Shown piece after piece: positions 11,744-62,462 of a DNA stretch of 64,000 bases. Made by a program: the position numbers and the translations under genes. A model generated the notes under the pieces. That model searched no databases. It was not told the origin of the DNA and saw only the letters and a program-made list of their open reading frames with translations. The DNA is from Candidatus Heimdallarchaeota archaeon (GTDB lineage: Archaea; Asgardarchaeota; Heimdallarchaeia; Heimdallarchaeales; Heimdallarchaeaceae): positions 15,825 to 79,824 of the forward strand of contig JABCTC010000015.1 of the NCBI GenBank assembly GCA_018238545.1, given 5' to 3'. Each line of letters begins with the position of its first letter. Position 1 is the stretch's first letter.

Positions 11744-13175
11744 ATGATGCTTATTTGTCTTCTTGTCTTATTAGACAAAGCTAGGTAAATGTCGTGCTTA
11801 GAGGTCATGATATAGGGCGAAGACACTCTATACTCACTCTGAGTGGATACATCACGTATCCTCCTACCCCGTTCACCTTGCGTTTAGGCAAGGCTTTCGG
11901 ATCGCTTTTTATCAGAATATTATATGCAGCATTAACATCAGCATTGATCAAGTGGCCTTGAGCTGAACGAAACAGCCCTCGGTGGATTCTTTTCCCTTTG
12001 TAATTTTTCCGCTTTTTAGGGAACTCATTATCCAGGAAACTGCTTTTAGAGGTGTATTGTTCAGGAATCGTCTCAACTTTTATCCCTCGTTCTGTTCCTT
12101 TGTATTTTAGCAAATCGATGATTTTCAAGAATGGGATGGTGACGAACATCTGGGTGGTTTTTTTCCAAAAATGCATTCCTTGTTTCCATAGCTCATTATA
12201 CCCTATCACCACTTCATGTAGCCCTCGTTCCACCCACAAGTCAACCAGATACTTGGTTAATTTGTGGATAGCATCGTTTAGCTTTTTTCTCCACTTTTCT
12301 TTGAGCTTATAGTAAGCTGGACCATATTTTAGACGATTATTCGATTGCAATTGTTTTCTCTGTTGCTGACTATACTGTAGTTGTAGTTTCTTCTGTTCTT
12401 TCAGATAATACTGTGTAATTGATTTTATCCCTTTCCCTGCGTCTTTGATAACAATCGGTCTTCCTCCGAGGTTATCCACGAAAGCGGCAAGGTTGTCCAT
12501 CCCTAAATCCACAGCTCCTTTTCTGGTCAACTTTTTCCTGAGATTGGGTATACTCTTGAGATAAACAAGTTCAAGGGTATAGTGAGTTCTTCGGGGAATG
12601 ATTCTTACTTCTCTTAACTCTGCTTGAGCTGTTAGCCTTGTCTTGTAAGTGTACTTCACTTTCTTAGGTAACACTAACCATCCATTGACAATACGTGCTT
12701 GTTGATTGGTGAAGATAGCTACTACTTCCCCATCCTTCTTTTTGTAGTTAGGTGGATTAGGCATGGCAAAAAACAATGTTGGGTTCTTCTTCCACTCTTG
12801 TTTCGCTCGGAAAAAGCTCTTCCAGGTTCTAGAAAGGAGTTTGAGAGTTTGTTGGGCAACATGAGCAGGAAGGACTCTGTAGCATTCTTCCTGTTTCAAC
12901 TGTCTGTCAAGATCATAGTAAAAGAGAAGTTTACTTGTTTGCTTCAAGGAGGTTTTTATCAGAAAATTTGCCCAATTATAGAGATTTTTTGCTTGATGAC
13001 AGATTCTGCTCAGTGCTGGATGATACTCCACTTCTATACGCTCTGCTCGCAGTACCTTTGCCATCTTTCGTTGACCCAGAGTTCATTATAAAAACTCCCG
13101 TAATATGCGCTTTAAACACTCCATTTAAACTGATACAATTGTAGCGAATATGACTACAAGACAAAAATTTATTAT
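11744..13175 (-). mobile_element. Non-autonomous TnpB-only IS, copy A
   Basis: Ends defined by alignment to the copy at 61043-62462; right end ...catcat; no transposase gene. Confidence 0.75.
11805..13064 (-). CDS. tnpB: RNA-guided endonuclease TnpB
   Basis: AVDLG (RuvC-I), IGYN..WKQ, EQYTSK, NADVNAAYNI (RuvC-III). Confidence 0.93.
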   Translation of the reverse strand: MAKVLRAERIEVEYHPALSRICHQAKNLYNWANFLIKTSLKQTSKLLFYYDLDRQLKQEECYRVLPAHVAQQTLKLLSRTWKSFFRAKQEWKKNPTLFFAMPNPPNYKKKDGEVVAIFTNQQARIVNGWLVLPKKVKYTYKTRLTAQAELREVRIIPRRTHYTLELVYLKSIPNLRKKLTRKGAVDLGMDNLAAFVDNLGGRPIVIKDAGKGIKSITQYYLKEQKKLQLQYSQQQRKQLQSNNRLKYGPAYYKLKEKWRKKLNDAIHKLTKYLVDLWVERGLHEVVIGYNELWKQGMHFWKKTTQMFVTIPFLKIIDLLKYKGTERGIKVETIPEQYTSKSSFLDNEFPKKRKNYKGKRIHRGLFRSAQGHLINADVNAAYNILIKSDPKALPKRKVNGVGGYVMYPLRVSIECLRPIS

Positions 13176-22280: not shown

Positions 22281-23195
22281 ATGAAATACGCAGAAGATCT
22301 AACTGAGCTGATTGGGAATACACCTCTGCTTAGACTCAAACGATTATTCCCTAATTTTGATATTTTTGGAAAATGTGAGTTTATGAACCCCTTAAGCATC
22401 AAAGATCGTCCTGTGCTTCAAATAATTGAAAACGCTGAAAGAGAAGGTAAGTTAAAGCATGGCGATGTAGTAATAGAATGTACAAGTGGAAACACTGGTA
22501 TGGCTGTTGCATTTATATCTGCAATAAAGGGTTATGAAGCTGTTTTAGTTATGTCAGAAATTCAAAGTTTAGAAAGAAGACAGATACTCAAAGCTCTTGG
22601 AGCAGATTTAATTCTAACGCCGGCAGAACTAGGAACAGAAGGAGCAAGACAAAAACTAAAAGAGATTTTACATGAGAACCCAGACTATTTCTATATTGGT
22701 CAACATGTAAATCCATCAAACCCGCAAGCCCATTATTCAACCACTGGTCCAGAGATTTGGGCAGATACTGAAGGAAAAATCGATATCCTAATTGCAGGTT
22801 TAGGAACAGGTGGGACAATCTGTGGTGCGGGGAAGTTCTTGAAGGAGAAAAAGTCGAGTATTAAACTGATAGCAGTTGAACCATTTGAATCTCCTTACAT
22901 CTCGAAAGGGATTTTCCAACCTCATAAGCTGATGGGGACAGCACCAGGGTTTGTTCCAAAAACATTGAACAAAGAGATTATTGATGAAATTATTCTTGTT
23001 AAGGAAACTGAAGCTTTTGCTATGTGTCGTCAAATAGCTGAAAAAGAGGGTCTCATGGTCGGTATATCTTCTGGTGCAACATGTAAAGCTGTAGAAGAGA
23101 TAACCAAAAGGGAGGAAAACAGAGACAAAGTAATTGTGGTAATATTAGCTGATACAGGACAAAGATATCTCAGTGTAGAAGAATTATTTGAATAA
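22281..23195 (+). CDS. cysK: Cysteine synthase A
   Basis: IGNTPL, SIKDR, TSGNTG, GTGGT, DTGQRYLS. Confidence 0.92.
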   Translation: MKYAEDLTELIGNTPLLRLKRLFPNFDIFGKCEFMNPLSIKDRPVLQIIENAEREGKLKHGDVVIECTSGNTGMAVAFISAIKGYEAVLVMSEIQSLERRQILKALGADLILTPAELGTEGARQKLKEILHENPDYFYIGQHVNPSNPQAHYSTTGPEIWADTEGKIDILIAGLGTGGTICGAGKFLKEKKSSIKLIAVEPFESPYISKGIFQPHKLMGTAPGFVPKTLNKEIIDEIILVKETEAFAMCRQIAEKEGLMVGISSGATCKAVEEITKREENRDKVIVVILADTGQRYLSVEELFE

Positions 23196-23520
23196 AGAAA
23201 TATGGTGGGTGGATAAACATTGTTGAGGATAATGAATCCTATCACAAAGCTAGGACTGATTCGATAATTTCAATGATACTTTCCATGTTAATTGTAGCTA
23301 GAAAGAAGAATCTAACATGATGAATACAACTTCTTTGGTGCTTTCACTTAAAGGTGTGGTAATACTGCTGCATTCTTAGTATTTGTCTGCATTTTACACC
23401 CGTAAGTCTAGGAATCAATATCTAGTACTCTTTTTCTTTTACTCAAGAAAGAGAGTTAATATCTTTCCCCCAATAGATTAGTGGAAGAATTTAAAAAGTG
23501 TCTATGGTATATTTTACGGA

Positions 23521-25467
23521 ATGAAAGTAAGAAGAATTTTAGGATTTATTCTAATATTATATCTTACTTTAAATGTAAATGTAATAAAAACCAATAGAAC
23601 AAATCTCGTTCTTCTAAAAATTGATAATCTCCAAACTCAGAGCAATGAACTAACAATATCACTTCAAACTAGTTCACTAATTTTAGATGATGACTCAGAT
23701 TTCATCGCTCTTAACTTACCCGGAAGTGGAACAGAGGGAGATCCTTATGTAATAGAAAACTATCAAATATCCACCACCGATAGAGTACCAGGCATTGATA
23801 TTCGAAAAACAACAAAGCATTTCATTATTCGAAATTGCAAAATTGAAACCGATAGCTGGGGTATTATTGTTAGTGAAATAGCACCAAATACAGCTTCAAT
23901 CATGAACAATGAATTGCTAAATAATGATTACACGGCGATTAGTGTCTACAAATCCCCTGGAATTACAATCTCTAATAATAATTTTAAAAATAATGATGAA
24001 GCCATATTGTTAAAAAAATCAAGCTATTCAGTTATTAGCAATAACTCATTTGAAGGAAATTGGGCTGCATTAACCATATCTGGCACAGATTCATGTAATA
24101 TAGAAAAGAACTTCTTTACTTCAAACGTAAACTCAATGAGTATTACAGCAGTTACAGATTTTATTATCAAGGATAATGTACTTTTGAATAATACAAGAAA
24201 TGGAATAAACCTATATTCTTCAGATAATACTTTGGTTTTGAATAATACATGTAGTGATAGTGGATGGCAAGGAATCCTAGTACGACAGTCACTATTTGTT
24301 ACATTAAACGACAATTCTCTTACTAATGACGGTATTTTGATAGATAATTATTCAGCAGAATATGGTAGTCTCTCAAATAATCAAGTCAACTCTAAAATTC
24401 TTGGTTTTTTCAACAATAAGGATGATTTAGAAATAACGGATCCTATTTATGGTCAGTTAATTCTTTTAGATTGTAAAAGGGGATATATTACTAATCAAAT
24501 TCTATCAAATGCAAGTGTAGGCATCACACTCTACAATAGTGAGAAAACTATCATTATCAATAATACTTGTAATAATAATGATGGTGATGGAATCAAAATT
24601 TATGATTCAGATGAATGCTTAGTTAGTAACAACACTTGTATTAATAATGAAAGAGGAATTAGTATTGCCAACTCCAATTATTGTAATGTTTCGAAAAATG
24701 CCTTGGTTGGAAATTGGCAGAGCATAGAATTTCAACATTCAAATTCAGGCGAGATTAACTTTAACAAGTGTTTACTAAACAAAAACCATGGAATAACGGT
24801 GATGTATTCAGAATCTTTTTTTGTGAACAATAACAATTGTTCAGATAACCATAATATAGGCATTCAAATAATAGATTCAAGATATTTTGTTGTGGCTAAT
24901 AATTCATGTATAAACAATAATAATGACGGAATTTACGTCCCAATAGCAAGCTATTGCATTATCTACAACAATTTCTGCAAAAATAACACAAATGGCATAT
25001 ATGTTGGTCATTCTGGAGAAAGCTGGATACCTGAATATGTGCCTCCACCCCCAGCTGCATATTTTGAAATAGTTGCAAATCAGCTTCAAGAGAATAGAGA
25101 ATACGGAGTTTATCTTGATCGAATGACAGAGGATAACAATATTCACCACAATTCATTTGTCAATAATAGTGAGGAAGGAATAGCACAAGGGTATGATAGT
25201 GGAGAGGGGAATATATGGTTTGATAAAAAGACAAATGAAGGCAATTATTGGTCTAATCATAATGGAGTTGGAACGTATAAAATTGCAGGAGAAGCTAATT
25301 CAATTGACCAATACCCATTAATAGAGCCAAAAAATATAGAAATGCCAGAGATTCCATCAAATTGGACAACTTACCGTACTAAATTAAATCCGCAAATAAT
25401 ATGCATAGGAATAGTAGCATTAGTATTATTACGGCGCAGAAAATCAAAGATTAGCAAAGAAATATAA
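23521..25467 (+). CDS. Secreted right-handed beta-helix (NosD/PbH1) protein
   Basis: Signal peptide, GSGT..DPY.IEN, Asn-rich repeats, GNYWS, C-terminal TM helix with basic tail. Confidence 0.88.
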   Translation: MKVRRILGFILILYLTLNVNVIKTNRTNLVLLKIDNLQTQSNELTISLQTSSLILDDDSDFIALNLPGSGTEGDPYVIENYQISTTDRVPGIDIRKTTKHFIIRNCKIETDSWGIIVSEIAPNTASIMNNELLNNDYTAISVYKSPGITISNNNFKNNDEAILLKKSSYSVISNNSFEGNWAALTISGTDSCNIEKNFFTSNVNSMSITAVTDFIIKDNVLLNNTRNGINLYSSDNTLVLNNTCSDSGWQGILVRQSLFVTLNDNSLTNDGILIDNYSAEYGSLSNNQVNSKILGFFNNKDDLEITDPIYGQLILLDCKRGYITNQILSNASVGITLYNSEKTIIINNTCNNNDGDGIKIYDSDECLVSNNTCINNERGISIANSNYCNVSKNALVGNWQSIEFQHSNSGEINFNKCLLNKNHGITVMYSESFFVNNNNCSDNHNIGIQIIDSRYFVVANNSCINNNNDGIYVPIASYCIIYNNFCKNNTNGIYVGHSGESWIPEYVPPPPAAYFEIVANQLQENREYGVYLDRMTEDNNIHHNSFVNNSEEGIAQGYDSGEGNIWFDKKTNEGNYWSNHNGVGTYKIAGEANSIDQYPLIEPKNIEMPEIPSNWTTYRTKLNPQIICIGIVALVLLRRRKSKISKEI

Positions 25468-25543
25468 GTGTAGCCGATACATCAATCCTAATTTTGCAAA
25501 CTGTTAGAATGCCTTTGCCATTTGAGAAGCGAGGAGATTGTTA

Positions 25544-25720
25544 CTATAATACGTCAAGGAGGTATGGTGAGATTTGAATCTCAAATCTATATTTATCAGT
25601 TTTAAACCTAATTTGGTTTATAACAGAAAGGATACACCACATATCCTCCTACCCCACCCACACTCCGCATAGGAAGTGCTTGTGGATCGCTTTTCAACAA
25701 AATATTATAGGCAACGTTTA
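25544..25720 (-). ncRNA. Predicted omega RNA of TnpB (scaffold overlapping the ORF 3' end, plus guide)
   Basis: 3' CDS nucleotides shared with the other TnpB copies (ggata(t/c)gtg(g/a)tgtatcc hairpin); hairpin at 25568-25588; boundaries approximate. Confidence 0.45.
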
Positions 25721-26825
25721 CATCAGCATTTATTCGTACCCCATTTGCTGATTGAAATACACCTCTTTTGATTCTCTTTCCTTTATAGATAGTGTGTTTC
25801 TTTATTGGTTCATTATCTAAGAAACTGCATTTGGAAGTATAATTCTCTTCGATAAGTACTACTTTGATTCCTTTTTCTTCTGCTTTGTAAGTTATTTTTT
25901 CAATTAGCTCTAGAAAAGGAATCTGAACAAAAAGTTGATTGAATTTTCTTCCAAAATTTATTCTTTGCTTCCAGTTCTTATTATATCCAATTACCAATGT
26001 CCCAATACTTTTTTTGCTGCATTCTTGGATTATGAAACTACTTAGTTTATGAAGTTGATTCAACTTCTTAAGCTCAAACTTTCTCTTTAGTTGATGAAAT
26101 TTCTTTCCATTCGTGCTTAGGTTAGAACTATAGCAGCGTGAAAGTTCAGATGATTTCTTATTGAAATACTGTACAATTGATTTTATTCCTTTACCATTAT
26201 CTTTGACAATAATTGGTCTAGATCCAATATTGTCTACTAAAGTTATAATGTTAAGGTATCCTAAATCGATTGCAGCTTTTCTGCTGCTTGGAAGGCTAAT
26301 AATTGTTAGTTTCTTCTGATAAATAATTTCAATAGTATAACCCACACCTTTTGGAACGACTCTAACTTGCTTTAATTGTACATCTTCATTAAATCTAGTT
26401 TTAACTGTAAAATTGACTTTTTTTGGTAACTTTAAGGTACCATCTTTGCGTATGCGGGCTTGATTTGCAGTAAATGTTGCAGTAAACTGTCCATTTGCTG
26501 ATTTGTATTTAGGTATTTTTGGTTTTGTTTGACCTCTTGAAGGATTATGAGTGTATTTTTTGTTAAGTTTAAAGAACGATGTCCAGTTTTCTCTTAATCT
26601 TCTCAATGTTTGTTGAGCTGTGTGTCCTGGCAAATTCGTATATTCCTTACTGTTTTTCATCAAATCCCAAAGATCAATATAACTTGAAACAAAGCCTTTT
26701 TTTGTAAACTCTTGTCTTAGTAGATAATTGGCTTTATTGTACAAATCCTTGACTGAACGACATAAATTACTTAGTTCGACACTTTGTTTAACTTCAATAC
26801 GTTCTGTTCGATAACAGTATGTCAT
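25608..26825 (-). CDS. tnpB: RNA-guided endonuclease TnpB
   Basis: AIDLG, IGYN..WKQ, EENYTSKCS, NADVN. Confidence 0.93.
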   Translation of the reverse strand: MTYCYRTERIEVKQSVELSNLCRSVKDLYNKANYLLRQEFTKKGFVSSYIDLWDLMKNSKEYTNLPGHTAQQTLRRLRENWTSFFKLNKKYTHNPSRGQTKPKIPKYKSANGQFTATFTANQARIRKDGTLKLPKKVNFTVKTRFNEDVQLKQVRVVPKGVGYTIEIIYQKKLTIISLPSSRKAAIDLGYLNIITLVDNIGSRPIIVKDNGKGIKSIVQYFNKKSSELSRCYSSNLSTNGKKFHQLKRKFELKKLNQLHKLSSFIIQECSKKSIGTLVIGYNKNWKQRINFGRKFNQLFVQIPFLELIEKITYKAEEKGIKVVLIEENYTSKCSFLDNEPIKKHTIYKGKRIKRGVFQSANGVRINADVNVAYNILLKSDPQALPMRSVGGVGGYVVYPFCYKPN

Positions 26826-26875
26826 TCAATAACCATATAGCAGTTCGATATATAATATCAAAAATAAGTGTGGTG

Positions 26876-26953
26876 TGGTGGGGTGGGGCGGATTCGAACC
26901 GCCGACTTTCTCCACGTCAAGGAGATATCATAACCGAGCTAGATCACCACCCC
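26876..26953 (-). tRNA. tRNA-Val(GAC)
   Basis: Cloverleaf; anticodon arm tctcc-ttGACgt-ggaga; encoded CCA. Confidence 0.96.
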
Positions 26954-27313: not shown

Positions 27314-29920
27314 ATGGATAAAAGTGTAGCACTTTCACTTAAAATTATCGGAGCAATCCTATTATTCTCAGCAGCATTTATACCGTTATACAGCATTGCA
27401 TTTGATTCTACAACAAATGAACCAGAGCCAATAGTTGCATCAGCTACCTTCAGTATTGCAGGTGGAGCAAATGATGTCTTCTACAAGGATGGTATGATTT
27501 ATATTGCTGATGCGAATGCAGGTATGCTCATTTTTAATGCATCCAACCCAACTTCCCCTAGTTTATCAGGGACTTATACTACTGCTGGAGACAGTAAAGG
27601 AATATATGTTGAAGACGGGTACGCATATGTAACAGACACACTTACAGGATTATTGATTGTTAATGTTACGATTGCATCAAGTCCAATATTGGCAGGATAT
27701 TATAATCTCACAGGAGGAGGTAATGAAGTATACGTAAAAGATGGATACGCATACGTAACAGCTGATACAGGACTAACAATTTTAAATGTAACAGATGTAA
27801 CAAATCCAACGTTTGAAGGAAGTTACGAAACAACAGGCATAGCACAAGATGTTTTCATTTATGGGGGTTGTGCGTTTATTCTAGATGAGACAAGTCTAGT
27901 AATATTGAATGTAACAGATGTAACAAATCCAACATTTGAAGGAAATTACAATACAAATGGTGTTGCTAATGATTTCGTCATACAAGGAGGGGTTGCTTTC
28001 ATTGTCGGCGAAAGTTTTGGTTTATCAATACTAAATGTAACAGATGTAACTGCACCAGTTTTGATGGGTAGTCATGATTTAGCTGGAGATGGAGAGGGTA
28101 TATTTATTGAAAATGGATATGCATTTGTCACCGATGCTGAAACAGGATTACAGATTATTTCTGTAGAGGATCCAACAAGCCCTGAACTGAAAGCATCGTA
28201 TGATATAGCAGGAGTACCCAATAGCATTTACATTGTTAATGAATACGCTTACATTGTAGACGACAGTACAGGATTGTTAATATTCCACGTTAGACCAAGG
28301 GTAAACACCGATACCGCAGGGAATCTTGTTCAAGTTATGGGTTTCAGTATTCAATATAGAACCCTCACTTACAATTCTACAGGATACTCAGCAGATGCTC
28401 AACTTCTTAGTGGAGAAGTTCCTGCTAGTGTTGTGATTCTATCTGCAATTATCTGGTTCTTATTGGTATTTGCATTATTATTTACAGTCTTAGGTCAAGT
28501 TTTCCAAAGTGGGGGCTTTAAGTCAAGAGGTCTAACTGCAGACATTGTTGCAGTAATATTATTGCTTAGTGGATTAATTGCGGCGATAATTGCGATGAAT
28601 CGCTCGCTGTACATTTCTGCAGATACCTACGTAGCAATAGTAGATGGTCAAACAGCATTATCATCTGCACCATTAACATTTAATCCAAATGACAGTTCTC
28701 CTTCCTTCTTTAATATTGAGTTAAACGGATCTATTGGTGCTGGTTTCTATCTATTTACTATCGGAATAATAGTGCTTGTAACAGGAATATTTTTACCTGT
28801 TAACTGGCAAAAACCAATTAGTTCTGAAAAAGTAAGAAAAATGGGAGAAACAGGCATTGTCAAATGGATAAAGAATGTTGCTAACTTGCGTTTAACAACA
28901 TATGTTGCCCGTCGTCTAATAACTCTTATTCCGCTATTTATTGCAGTTTGTGTTCTGACGTTTGTAATGGTAAGCGGTTTAGGTGACCCAGTAGCTTTAC
29001 TGTTACTTGGAAAACAAAGAACTACAGAACAGGATCGAATAAATCTAACGCGAAAATTAGGGTTAGATCAACCAATCTATGTACAGTTCATTATGTGGTT
29101 CTACAACCTCTTACATGGAGACATGGGGGACAGTTTCCAATCAGGTCAAGCAATAAACAACATGATTGGTGGTTTAGTCTGGGAAACACTAAAATTACAA
29201 TTATTAGCATTTGTACTATCATTGGTTGTCTCCATCCCATTAGGAGTTTTAGCAGCTAATAATCATAACACATGGATTGACTCAATGTCAAGCTCACTTG
29301 CATTGTTAGGACAATCAATGCCCATATTTGTCTTTGGGTTAATCCTAATCTACATCTTCAGTGGTTATGGATTAGGATGGTTCCCAGCAGCAAAAGCTCA
29401 TAGAGTACCAACACCAACACCAGTATTCAGTGGCACGAATTGGGACTTATTCTGGGGCGGAGAATGGGCAACGTGGTGGGGCAATCTCACCTTGAGACTA
29501 GGTGACTCTCTCATGCATATGGCTCTTCCAACAGTTACATTGTTGTTCAACTTCATGGCAATATATACAAGATTAGTAAGATCAACTATGTTAGAAGTAT
29601 TGAGACAAGACTTTATCTTAGCCGCAAGAGCTAATGGTATATCTGAGAGAATCATTACATGGAAACATGCTTTCAGAAACACATTGGTTCCAGTCGTTAC
29701 CTATGTAGGGTTGTTTTTGGCTACAGCATTAGCTGGAGCTCCTATTACAGAAACACTCTTCACATGGCCAGGACTAGGATTCAAATATGTATCAGCTATC
29801 AGTCTTCTCGACTTCCCGATGATACTCGGCACGGTAGCAATACTGACGATACTAATTCTGTTAGGGAATCTAATAACTGATATAATCTACGTGGCGGTAG
29901 ATCCAAGAATCGAATTGTAG
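27314..29920 (+). CDS. dppB: Peptide ABC permease (DppB/OppB) with N-terminal LVIVD-repeat extracellular domain
   Basis: About 7 YAYV.D...GL.I.NV.D.T.P repeats, then YVARRL, GLDQP, and EAA loop ARANG...KHAFRN. Confidence 0.88.
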   Translation: MDKSVALSLKIIGAILLFSAAFIPLYSIAFDSTTNEPEPIVASATFSIAGGANDVFYKDGMIYIADANAGMLIFNASNPTSPSLSGTYTTAGDSKGIYVEDGYAYVTDTLTGLLIVNVTIASSPILAGYYNLTGGGNEVYVKDGYAYVTADTGLTILNVTDVTNPTFEGSYETTGIAQDVFIYGGCAFILDETSLVILNVTDVTNPTFEGNYNTNGVANDFVIQGGVAFIVGESFGLSILNVTDVTAPVLMGSHDLAGDGEGIFIENGYAFVTDAETGLQIISVEDPTSPELKASYDIAGVPNSIYIVNEYAYIVDDSTGLLIFHVRPRVNTDTAGNLVQVMGFSIQYRTLTYNSTGYSADAQLLSGEVPASVVILSAIIWFLLVFALLFTVLGQVFQSGGFKSRGLTADIVAVILLLSGLIAAIIAMNRSLYISADTYVAIVDGQTALSSAPLTFNPNDSSPSFFNIELNGSIGAGFYLFTIGIIVLVTGIFLPVNWQKPISSEKVRKMGETGIVKWIKNVANLRLTTYVARRLITLIPLFIAVCVLTFVMVSGLGDPVALLLLGKQRTTEQDRINLTRKLGLDQPIYVQFIMWFYNLLHGDMGDSFQSGQAINNMIGGLVWETLKLQLLAFVLSLVVSIPLGVLAANNHNTWIDSMSSSLALLGQSMPIFVFGLILIYIFSGYGLGWFPAAKAHRVPTPTPVFSGTNWDLFWGGEWATWWGNLTLRLGDSLMHMALPTVTLLFNFMAIYTRLVRSTMLEVLRQDFILAARANGISERIITWKHAFRNTLVPVVTYVGLFLATALAGAPITETLFTWPGLGFKYVSAISLLDFPMILGTVAILTILILLGNLITDIIYVAVDPRIEL

Positions 29921-57514: not shown

Positions 57515-58723
57515 CTACACAGTCCAACAGTGCGGATGACTCACGGCATCCACTGTCCCGTAGGTAAAGACCATCGGGAATACTTTTCTGCCGATATTAG
57601 CTGCGGCATTACAATCAGCATTAAGCAAGGTACCAGCTTTACTTCTAAATAGACCTCGTTTCACTCGTTTGCCAAGATAGCTAGGATGCTTAGCAATGCG
57701 CTCATTATCGACAAATGAACATTTGGACGTATACTCCTCTGCTATTAAAACAACTTTTATCCCCTCCTCTTCAGCTTTATACTGAAGTTTGTGAACTAAG
57801 CTTAAGAAGGGGATGGAGATGAATGTCTGATTATTCTTCTTCCCCATCTTGCTCTGCTGCTTCCAACTCTTGTTATAGCCAATAACAATTGTATCTATAC
57901 TATGCTTCACACATTGGTTGATGACGATCCTAGAAGCTTGGTGGAGATAGTTTTCTATTCTCTGGTACCGCTTGTCTAACAATTTTTTCATCCTCTGCCC
58001 ATACTCAGCTAATCCTTGTAAATCATATATAGATTGGAGACGGGAACGTTCCTTGTTGTACCACTGGTTGATAGCCTTCATTTTCCTCCCTTTGACGAGG
58101 AACGGAGAAAAGCTGTTACTCACACAAGTCAAGAGATTATTTACTCCTAGATCGATAGCCAAGATATTCTTTGTTTGGAGAGGAGAATTAGCTGTTTTCG
58201 TTACTATTTCTCGTTCGTAAATTATCTCCAAGATAAAACATGTCCCCTTAGGTAGTAGACGAACATGATTGATTTTTGTTCCTTCTTTCAACCTTGTTCT
58301 CACTTTCAATCCTACTTTCTTGGGAAAATGTACCCATCCCTCTTTTTTGATCTTTACCTGATTAGCAGTGAAGTAGATGGTGTGAAACCCTCGTTTCTTC
58401 TTATACTTAGGTGCACGAGGCGGGGAGTGGAAATTCTGGGGATGTTTCTTATATTCTTTCTTTGCTCTGAAATATGCTTTCCAGTTCTTTACCAGAAATT
58501 TTATCGTTTGTTGAGCAGAATGGGCGATAAATTCTGTATAGCACGGATGGTACCGTAGAATATTCACTAACTCATATTCTGAGGTCATGTAATTGTTATT
58601 TTTCAGTTGTTTCTTGATGATATAATTGCCATAATTATAGATATTCTTGCTCTGTCTCGCTAACTGCATAAGCGTGAAACTCTGCTTCACTTTTATCCGT
58701 TCAGTCCGTTTAACGAGCATCAC
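57515..58723 (-). CDS. tnpB: RNA-guided endonuclease TnpB
   Basis: AIDLGVNN, IGYN..WKQ, EEYTSKCS, NADCNAA.NI. Confidence 0.93.
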   Translation of the reverse strand: MMLVKRTERIKVKQSFTLMQLARQSKNIYNYGNYIIKKQLKNNNYMTSEYELVNILRYHPCYTEFIAHSAQQTIKFLVKNWKAYFRAKKEYKKHPQNFHSPPRAPKYKKKRGFHTIYFTANQVKIKKEGWVHFPKKVGLKVRTRLKEGTKINHVRLLPKGTCFILEIIYEREIVTKTANSPLQTKNILAIDLGVNNLLTCVSNSFSPFLVKGRKMKAINQWYNKERSRLQSIYDLQGLAEYGQRMKKLLDKRYQRIENYLHQASRIVINQCVKHSIDTIVIGYNKSWKQQSKMGKKNNQTFISIPFLSLVHKLQYKAEEEGIKVVLIAEEYTSKCSFVDNERIAKHPSYLGKRVKRGLFRSKAGTLLNADCNAAANIGRKVFPMVFTYGTVDAVSHPHCWTV

Positions 58724-61042: not shown

Positions 61043-62462
61043 ATAATGTTTTTTTGTCTTTTTGTCTTATTAAGTTGGAAATTGAGTAGCATTTTAGAGA
61101 TAGTATGGGTGTTTTTATAGTGAACTCTGGGTAAACTATAGATGGTAAAGGTACTGCGTGCAGAGCGTATAGAAGTGACGTATCATCCAGCACTGAGCAG
61201 AATTTGTCATCAAGCAAAAAATCTCTATAATCGAGCAAATTTTCTGTTAACAAATTCTTTAAAGCAAACAAACAAACTTCTCTTTTACTATGATCTTGAC
61301 AAACAATTGAAACAGGAGGAGTGCTACAAGGTCCTCCCAGCTCATGTTGCTCAACAAACGCTCAAACTTCTAAGTAGGAACTGGAAAAGCTTTTTCCGAG
61401 CTAAACAAGAGTGGAAAAAGAATCCTACATTGTTTTTTGCCATGCCTAATCCACCTAACTACAAGAAGAAGGATGGGGAAGTAGTAGCCATCTTTACCAA
61501 TCAACAAGCACGTATTGTCAATGGTTGGCTAGTGTTACCGAAGAAAGTGAAATACACTTACAAGACACGGTTAACAGCTCAAGCAGAGTTAAGAGAAGTG
61601 AGAGTCATTCCCCGAAGAACTCACTACACCCTTGAACTTGTTTATCTGAAGAGTATACCAAATCTCAAGAAAAAGTTGATTAGAAAAGGAGCGATAGATT
61701 TAGGGATGGACAACCTTGCCGCTTTTGTGGATAACCTCGGAGGAAGACCGATTGTTATAAAAGATGCAGGGAAAGGGATAAAATCCATTACGCAATATTA
61801 TTTGAAAGAACAGAAAAAACTACAACTACAGTATAGTCAGCAACAGAGAAAACAATTGCAAAAGAAGAACAGACTCAAGTATGGTTCAACTTACTACAAG
61901 CTCAAAGAGAAGTGGAGAAAAAAGCTAAACGATGCTATCCACAAATTAACCAAGTATCTGGTTGACTTATGGGTCGAACGAGGGCTCCATGAAGTGATAA
62001 TAGGTTACAACCCATTGTGGAAACAGAATCTCCATTTTTGGAAGAAAACCACTCAGATGTTTGTCACCATCCCCTTCCTGAAAATCATTGATATGCTAAA
62101 GTACAAAGGAGCAGAACAAGGGATAAAGGTGGAGACCATCCCTGAACAATACACCTCCAAGAGTAGTTTCTTGGATAATGAATTCCCTAAAAAGAGAAAA
62201 AAATACAAGGGAAAAAGAATCCACCGAGGGTTGTTCCGTTCTGCTCAAGGTCATTTGATTAATGCTGATGTTAATGCCGCTTACAATATTCTGCTAAAAA
62301 GCGATCCGAAAGCCTTGCCTAAACGCACGGTGAACGGGGTAGGAGGATACGTGATGTATCCCCTCAGAGTGATTATAGAGTACCTTCGCCCTATATCATG
62401 ACCTCTAAGCACTACATTTACCTAGCTTTGTCAAATAAGACAAGAAGACAAATAGACATCAT
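61043..62462 (+). mobile_element. Non-autonomous TnpB-only IS, copy B
   Basis: Homologous to copy A; imperfect ~30-bp inverted termini. Confidence 0.78.
61142..62401 (+). CDS. tnpB: RNA-guided endonuclease TnpB
   Basis: Close paralog of 11805-13064, same length (419 aa). Confidence 0.93.
   Translation: MVKVLRAERIEVTYHPALSRICHQAKNLYNRANFLLTNSLKQTNKLLFYYDLDKQLKQEECYKVLPAHVAQQTLKLLSRNWKSFFRAKQEWKKNPTLFFAMPNPPNYKKKDGEVVAIFTNQQARIVNGWLVLPKKVKYTYKTRLTAQAELREVRVIPRRTHYTLELVYLKSIPNLKKKLIRKGAIDLGMDNLAAFVDNLGGRPIVIKDAGKGIKSITQYYLKEQKKLQLQYSQQQRKQLQKKNRLKYGSTYYKLKEKWRKKLNDAIHKLTKYLVDLWVERGLHEVIIGYNPLWKQNLHFWKKTTQMFVTIPFLKIIDMLKYKGAEQGIKVETIPEQYTSKSSFLDNEFPKKRKKYKGKRIHRGLFRSAQGHLINADVNAAYNILLKSDPKALPKRTVNGVGGYVMYPLRVIIEYLRPIS

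Follow-up and report, generated by a model that had tools for sequence, protein, structure and literature searches.

What is a tnpB gene doing immediately behind a tRNA-Val gene whose anticodon arm is almost copied at the 3′ end of the predicted omega RNA? This question is raised by a locus in a 64,000-nucleotide stretch of DNA (hereafter the window) from the genome (G000) of a Candidatus Heimdallarchaeota archaeon. An initial annotation had placed tnpB 50 nucleotides downstream of the tRNA gene, which is correct (26825-25608 and 26953-26876, both on the minus strand), and had reported that nucleotides 25551-25565 match 26914-26928 of the tRNA at 14 of 15 positions. This match is genuine, as evident by the fact that no such match occurs in 100 shuffled versions of the window. 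Two of the 15 matched nucleotides (AT) close the RNA scaffold in the one partner and the putative TAM in the other, and the match confined to the guide covers 12 of 13 nucleotides (25563-25551 against 26926-26914), with the mismatch at guide position 2. The chance of such a match is ~4e-5 per locus. None of the 3′ flanks of 25 other tnpB genes in this genome reaches 12/13 to a tRNA of normal length; two flank matches of 12/13 fall in a spurious tRNA call of 2.4 kb.

Table 1. Features of the tRNA-Val(GAC)-tnpB locus, numbered by window position.
Feature	Position	Strand	Remark
tRNA-Val(GAC), intronless, the carrier's own allele	26876..26953	-	
tnpB, 405 aa	25608..26825	-	Start 50 nt past tRNA-Val(GAC)
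Predicted TAM ATGAT	26927..26931	-	tRNA positions 21-25; putative TAM
Near-target in the carrier's own gene, 12/13 to guide	26914..26926	-	tRNA positions 26-38; mismatch at guide position 2
T-run past the tRNA, then TATA-box-like motif	26848..26868	-	Presumed function
Omega-RNA scaffold, conserved portion	25564..25690	-	Overlaps the tnpB 3′ end
Scaffold pseudoknot	25640-25635 with 25569-25564	-	Terminal
Last hairpin of scaffold	25588-25570	-	
13-nt guide	25551..25563	-	Equals tRNA-Val(GAC) 26-38 of G010 and 17 other family genomes
Cargo: 648-aa beta-helix (NosD-like) protein	23521..25467	+	
Decayed repeat of the tRNA 3′ end	23203..23212	-	Far boundary of the insert
cysK-like gene	22281..23195	+	Conserved right flank of the locus (homology arm)
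ABC permease with LVIVD repeats	27314..29920	+	Conserved left flank of the locus (homology arm)

The insert spans 3.67 kb (about 23210-26875) and is lacking in genome G010. A TATA-like box is located 28-29 nucleotides ahead of the tnpB start codon in all five lineages described below, and tnpB probably has its own promoter and is leaderless. A mark of integrase-type islands, namely a far boundary that repeats the tRNA 3′ end, is present in the window and at loci L137, L138 and L142, and is absent at L136; no integrase gene was found among the cargo genes of the island. The beta-helix cargo is also found without tnpB at the same tRNA gene in G012 and G023.

The window's tnpB belongs to a monophyletic clade (tree support 100/99) of five lineages, within which its own branch is long. 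These are the window (with L144, a 99% twin), P0003 (L136), P0004 (L137), P0005 (G012; L138-L141) and P0006 (L142). Close homologs of the window's TnpB bear Heimdallarchaeia names. Other members are 55-58% identical to it, and a gap in profile scores sets the clade (747-812 bits) apart from 516 bits. P0002 was excluded as an apparent chimera at its 5′ end: the 5′ part of its locus (L145) is unrelated, its tnpB is otherwise 96-99% identical, and the contig is probably chimeric. In all five lineages tnpB starts 50-69 nucleotides past a tRNA-Val gene, which is tRNA-Val(GAC) in the window and tRNA-Val(TAC) in the other four. The cassette occurs in two of 82 genomes of the class, and profile searches, scans of metagenomes and genomes, and pattern searches across the class and phylum yielded no sixth lineage. 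The top-scoring non-member (L290:1355-2560, G021:C96; 531 bits, 50-53% identity) is a short solo TnpB that has neither an adjoining tRNA nor repeat-rich ends; it is not among the sequences of the tree and is a candidate sister lineage. In a neighboring genus, an N-terminal tnpB fragment (L294:664-900, G040:C16) is located ~330 nucleotides before tRNA-Val(GAC).

The window's protein matches PF01385, PF07282 and NF040570 above cut-off, and its structural model (pLDDT 86; TM 0.64-0.67 to the TnpBs of ISDra2 and ISFba1) predicts a fold like that of TnpB/Cas12f. The RuvC site is rearranged, with D187, a glycine (G280) at the usual RuvC-II glutamate position, an alternative glutamate (E327) and D368, and the Cys4 finger is lacking. 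D187, E327 and D368 are kept in all clade members, G280 and E327 are invariant in 52 sequences, and the catalytic residues are intact. Pairwise dN/dS for tnpB is 0.12-0.22, with dS saturated between most lineages, and the gene is under purifying selection.

To what extent can the border between scaffold and guide be trusted? An alignment of the five 3′ regions yields six helices and 33 pairs, with 97% of cells paired and seven pairs carrying two-sided changes, in a fold that rests on only five sequences, two of them close. The terminal pseudoknot joins a hairpin loop to the final six bases of the scaffold and has two two-sided changes, and the scaffold ends at CAT. This border, as defined by covariation, coincides with the homology-defined right end of the genome's mobile tnpB copies, which also finish in CAT as noted previously. 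An alternative fold for the naked RNA pairs the guide back onto the scaffold. No Rfam family matches the scaffold. A register in which TTAT serves as the TAM and the guide begins at CAT was rejected, because CAT is invariant against GAT or GAC targets and is paired in the scaffold. A guide copying the full stretch of tRNA positions 26-43 would fold on itself (-5.1 to -7.7 kcal/mol), and this closing of the anticodon stem by a guide that reaches position 43 may explain why guides stop at 38-41. At L137:1681 and L140:3059, the stop and last codons of a convergent PLD/DrmC-like gene overlap the guide, which is therefore under two constraints at these loci.

The TAM can be approached through the mobile relatives of the clade. 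There are ~30 related tnpB copies and fragments in the genome, with full-length copies being 39-47% identical. The window holds three mobile copies (11814-13064 and 57524-58708 on the minus strand, 61142-62365 on the plus strand) and G000 about 25 more, and the solo copies have imperfect inverted-repeat ends, an AT crossover core and no target duplication. Empty sites reveal NTAT ahead of the insertion point for group 1 (copies A and B), the next AAT being part of the element. The likeness that had been drawn between TTATGAT before the tRNA target and TTATAAT at the left ends of copies A and B is therefore out of register, since three bases of the latter are part of the element. In group 2 (copy D, 57524-58708), insertion follows WGAT (five copies; empty site AATGAT), and the ATGAT ahead of the tRNA target fits this group. 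Every perfect target discussed below is preceded by ATGAT or ATGAC. The clade and group 2 also share an FTANQ motif, which may touch the TAM as it does in ISDra2, and which is FTNQQ in group 1. The closest mobile group uses NTAT, unlike TGAY, and TvTnpB, which has the same rearranged site, cuts at NTGAC (PMC10530073). It is thus plausible from these motifs that the TAM of the clade is TGAY.

In all five lineages, the 13-16 nucleotides past the scaffold end copy positions 26-38 (or up to 41) of the neighboring tRNA-Val, and because the copied gene is the neighboring isoacceptor (GAC or TAC), the guide changes with the anticodon. The DNA after the guide is unrelated between lineages. This recurrence strongly supports the earlier proposal of a guide in this flank that is directed at the anticodon arm of tRNA-Val. 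Against the carrier's own gene, the guide matches 12/13 positions in the window and 11/13 in G012 and L137, and the match is split by introns in L136 and L142. The same tRNA gene in nuclease-free sister genomes carries the perfect target, with matches of 13/13 in three lineages and 16/16 in two. What the initial annotation missed is that the predicted perfect target is the allele of a sister lineage, the carrier's gene being always mismatched or interrupted by introns.

For the window, the guide matches G010 at 13/13. G010 is the closest empty site (~90% nucleotide identity), and its tRNA-Val(GAC) differs from that of the window solely at the paired stem positions 27 and 43 (26925 and 26909). 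Eighteen of the 29 family genomes carry the perfect GAC target behind ATGAT; G000 lacks it. The putatively immune allele of the window is common to three nuclease-free genomes (G002, G016 and G021), and so may predate the nuclease. In G016 (L025:5110-5646), just the 5′ portion of the gene for the beta-helix cargo comes after this allele, perhaps a decayed version of the insert seen in the window. The target of the G012 and L137 guides is perfect in G011, G017, G007, G009 and G008 (16 nucleotides checked for G011). ATGAY followed by the genome's own guide is absent from G000 and G012. Perfect targets occur once per genome, and every one examined is the orthologous tRNA gene; in the empty sites of G010, G004/G018 and G011 the target is located inside the tRNA, upstream of the insertion point. 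At the level of sequence only, the own allele in five lineages lacks a perfect site that the rival allele at the same locus carries.

In L136 and L142, two introns interrupt the carrier's gene: one of 31 nucleotides separates positions 25 and 26, at the exact junction of putative TAM and target, and one of 30 nucleotides lies at 37/38, within the target. Position 37/38 is the usual site of tRNA introns. Removal of both introns in silico yields the tRNAs of G018 and G004 (that of G018 for L136), which the guides match at 13/13. By MFE folding, the precursors with two introns do not show both splice motifs, and splicing is therefore assumed from the identity of the exons with intronless relatives. 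Introns at 25/26 and 37/38 are also present without the nuclease in G013 and G019.

Would such differences protect the carrier? ISDra2 TnpB needs ~12 TAM-proximal base pairs, and double mismatches at positions 1-12 abolish cutting, those at 13-16 merely reducing it (PMC10097598), while editing by ISDge10 declines from 14 nucleotides and is absent at 10 (PMC13507860). Given these guide-length data, the sister alleles should be cut, perhaps weakly. By the same analogy, a match of 13 base pairs is expected to be near the lower limit for cutting, and alleles with two mismatches or with introns should be safe. That the single mismatch in the window would give safety is the least certain step.

Several loci bear what look like traces of allele replacement. 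The 1.1 kb upstream of tRNA-Val(TAC) in G012 is 97.8% identical to G011, though the tRNA itself differs from that of G011 at 12 positions; it has no differences from that of G005, where the flank is 85.3% identical. The G012 guide matches the G011 allele. From these identities the tRNA gene of G012 has visibly been swapped, it would seem, and alleles are distributed as a mosaic among the genomes. L137 presents a second case of tRNA swapping in the same clade, with a tnpB at a dS of 0.5 from that of G012. L136 is 97.7% (G004) and 94.4% (G018) identical to empty sites upstream and differs from them by the two introns plus the cassette, rejoining them ~13 nucleotides past the guide. This difference may be either a gain in L136 or a loss in G004 and G018. 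The first intron of L136 is identical to that of G013 at 29 of 31 positions, and the G013 flank is 81% identical. Next to the L136 guide are tRNA bases 44-48, without the intervening stem strand 39-43, and relic tRNA bases are present in L137 as well.

Guides may also be replaced. In G012 (L140:3933-3961, G012:C47), a second scaffold end and a 13-nucleotide guide of the L142 type are found ~900 nucleotides downstream, behind a PLD cargo gene, and this second guide aims at another allele. It is possible that this relic is older and records guide turnover; most simply, an old cassette gave way to one with a new guide against the allele of the clade to which G012 itself belongs. The anticodon-arm alleles in the genus number six for Val(TAC), three for Val(GAC), three for Asn and two for Thr, which is suggestive of an arms race at TAC without being decisive.

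We consider it likely, though well short of certain, that the cassette is a free-standing RNA-guided homing (allele-exclusion) nuclease at tRNA-Val, which would cut the rival allele and so spread or protect the cassette together with an immune tRNA. An ancestor probably inserted at tRNA position 25/26, whereby the guide arose. TnpB, devoid of transposon ends, would be expressed from its own promoter behind the tRNA, with an omega RNA whose guide of 13-16 nucleotides equals positions 26-38(41) of the sister-lineage allele behind an ATGAY TAM. When carrier and non-carrier DNA are present in one cell, TnpB would cut the sensitive allele, and repair from the carrier would copy in the immune tRNA with its stem substitutions or introns; a repair tract reaching the far flank would copy the nuclease and cargo too. 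In a carrier, cutting of incoming empty alleles would guard the cassette against loss by recombination. Exchange of DNA between cells of these archaea is assumed throughout. With phage Seg enzymes, inheritance of the nuclease requires that resection extend to the far homology (PMC2988022). Resection-limited inheritance of this kind would leave immune alleles without tnpB, and such alleles are present in G013, G019, G005, G023, G002, G016 and G021, although they may also simply predate the nuclease. Because the cassette is rare and the sensitive GAC allele is common, any drive would be weak.

Some of these observations could be accommodated by a domesticated defense system, in which TnpB cuts viruses or integrative elements that carry tRNA-Val or a long attP covering positions 21-38, and the self-mismatch serves to avoid autoimmunity. 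Self-avoidance, purifying selection and the retained older guide fit immunity as well, both tRNA-Val loci are hotspots for cassettes, one neighbor is PLD/DrmC-like, and a cassette that replaces a whole tRNA is present at L021 (see below). However, viral contigs, of which 2.9 million were searched, yielded no tRNA-type target: three pattern scans of IMG/VR returned three matches, none of which is of tRNA type (a phage capsid gene and two unrelated stretches), and a profile scan of viral contigs recovered distant TnpBs only. This blank is weak, since Asgard viruses are poorly sampled. Moreover, the single perfect targets examined in other genomes are all orthologous tRNA genes, the local repeats cover only the last ~24 nucleotides of the tRNA and exclude the target, and the swapped tRNA of G012 is not predicted by defense. 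We judge this explanation unlikely, and the earlier suggestion that TnpB guards against integrative elements finds no support in the viral search or in the cassette repeats. It is quite unlikely, too, that the guide is an insertion scar at 25/26 whose carriers are survivors with a resistant spare tRNA, and that there is no inheritance bias. Mobile kin do insert after an AT core, ATGAT lies at 25/26, some guides are followed by relic tRNA bases and the cassette is rare. Nonetheless, transposon-end repeats are gone while tnpB has kept its low dN/dS over saturated dS, the guide has stayed exact next to DNA that is unrelated between lineages, the ATGAC targets of three guides lack the AT core, and the G012 guide appears to have been replaced toward the allele of the clade of G012 itself. 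The initially proposed insertion into a relic att duplicate could plausibly have given rise to the guide, given the relic bases in L136 and L137, and leaves the upkeep of the guide unexplained.

A role as a non-cutting regulator in the manner of TldR, which would bind its own tRNA gene by partial match and lower the transcription of either that gene or tnpB, seems very improbable. The near-target in the window (12/13 with ATGAT) would suit such a role, and short guides can bind without cutting (PMC13507860), but the catalytic residues are intact, the guides of G012 and L137 fit a foreign allele better than their own, and introns destroy the DNA target in L136 and L142. Binding to the carrier's own tRNA gene by partial complementarity, another of the initial proposals, cannot be general given the two loci with introns across the target. 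Finally, the start of the guide can pair with a GGAGG tract of the scaffold, so that the match might be due to chance or the guide fixed by this pairing only. This is scarcely credible, as five lineages are exact to their cognate alleles, including changes that break the pairing, and the chance probability is that given above for each locus.

The homing nuclease that we favor has precedents in part. The homing described for TnpBs of IS200/IS605 and IS607 elements (PMC10055086; PMC10097598) shares the TnpB fold, an omega RNA overlapping the gene end, a guide from the 3′ flank and a 5′ TAM, and would share the inheritance bias by breaking and copying. In the published case (PMC10055086) the target is the element's empty junction, whereas here it lies ~90 nucleotides upstream in an essential gene. 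In further contrast to IS200/IS605 and IS607 elements, an altered essential gene is kept, and the cassette is present in single copy at a fixed locus without transposon ends; specifically, clade tnpB genes lack the inverted-repeat-like ends (TTGTC/GACAA) of the mobile group-1 and group-2 copies. A Y1 TnpA was found neither in G000 (no PF01797 match; 92% complete) nor adjoining any clade member, and a search for the transposase of the mobile kin yielded no Y1 and one short Cas1-like match. No serine recombinase was found upstream of tnpB, and the genome's IS607 resolvases go with another TnpB that is longer. Within the tests available, the cassette is neither an IS200/IS605 nor an IS607 element, as it has no Y1, no upstream serine recombinase and no empty-junction target.

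Synthetic Home-and-Rescue and Cleave-and-Rescue drives are engineered Cas9 systems in insects. They share with the cassette a guide against an essential gene and a linked recoded copy, with the difference that the arrangement here is natural and prokaryotic and that tRNA introns are one form of recoding. Free-standing phage homing endonucleases, with SegB and with intronless and collaborative homing as examples (PMC2988022; F-CphI, PMC6083498), share the placement of the nuclease gene outside the cut site and beside tRNA genes, and also the logic of cutting a rival while one's own site is resistant, for which an intron can supply immunity. These enzymes recognize DNA as proteins and act in co-infections, whereas the present system would be RNA-guided, chromosomal, archaeal and apparently retargetable. 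The active site resembles that of the rearranged TnpB2/RIIr proteins (TvTnpB, PMC10530073; RIIr-5, PMC10691335) in the glycine at the RuvC-II glutamate position and the alternative glutamate 47 residues on, and G280 and E327 make the window's TnpB a member of this type by the published definition. TvTnpB (PMC10530073), which we liken by active-site layout, is archaeal too and its TAM resembles ATGAY, but it sits in an IS605 element with TnpA, unlike the clade here. Cas12k CAST (10.1101/2021.02.06.429022) also uses a short, truncated guide to the att site of a tRNA gene, and TldR (10.1101/2023.11.30.569447) a guide to a host gene. Both effectors are nuclease-dead and match the host's own site, whereas the clade has an intact active site and neither Tns genes nor an array, and its guides avoid the carrier's site. 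Identity with TldR was rejected on the basis of the three acidic residues kept in all members.

The tRNA-Val-aimed TnpB cassette is real, conserved and apparently undescribed, and its weak points are its rarity and its restriction to five lineages in draft assemblies. A survey of TnpB exaptation (PMC10691335) does not mention tRNA, and we found no published description of a tRNA-targeting TnpB in a search that was thin on subscription journals. A recent census of Asgard tRNA introns regards their arrival and retention as the central open problem and mentions neither TnpB nor homing (10.64898/2026.10.13.758758). The present loci offer a testable route for the spread and retention of archaeal tRNA introns, rather than for the first origin of intron sequences, in that one intron position falls precisely between the putative TAM and target of a linked nuclease and another within that target, with near-identical empty alleles as ready controls. 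They also represent a TnpB exapted with its active site intact and aimed at an essential host gene, and natural pairs of sensitive and immune alleles for measuring the seed rules of rearranged-site TnpBs. We entertain more tentatively, as something that may well prove otherwise, the wider view of a natural drive of the home-and-rescue kind, RNA-guided and located at an essential tRNA gene, in which introns and recoded anticodon stems would have moved between Asgard lineages as immunity alleles, guide cassettes would have been swapped and older guides left as a record. If this is true, then, taken with IS607-type cases such as L021 (below), tRNA-targeting TnpBs would be a general selective force for intron gain in Asgard tRNA genes.

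Both tRNA-Val genes are followed by tandem gene cassettes, without an integrase, that are spaced by repeats of the ~24-nucleotide tRNA 3′ end (L137:3723 and 4968; L138:7455 and 8153; L142:4611; L021:3300-3322; window 23203-23212), and L137 shares one cassette with G007 at 99%. At L021:5336-7709 (G012:C65), tRNA-Val(GAC) is interrupted after gene base 54 by a 630-aa TnpB of IS607 type, which has a predicted guide antisense to the intact gene. This TnpB is followed by a second promoter and a full replacement tRNA with a 31-nucleotide intron and an altered T arm. This locus is predicted to follow the same cut-and-rescue logic as the clade loci, with a TnpB of another family.
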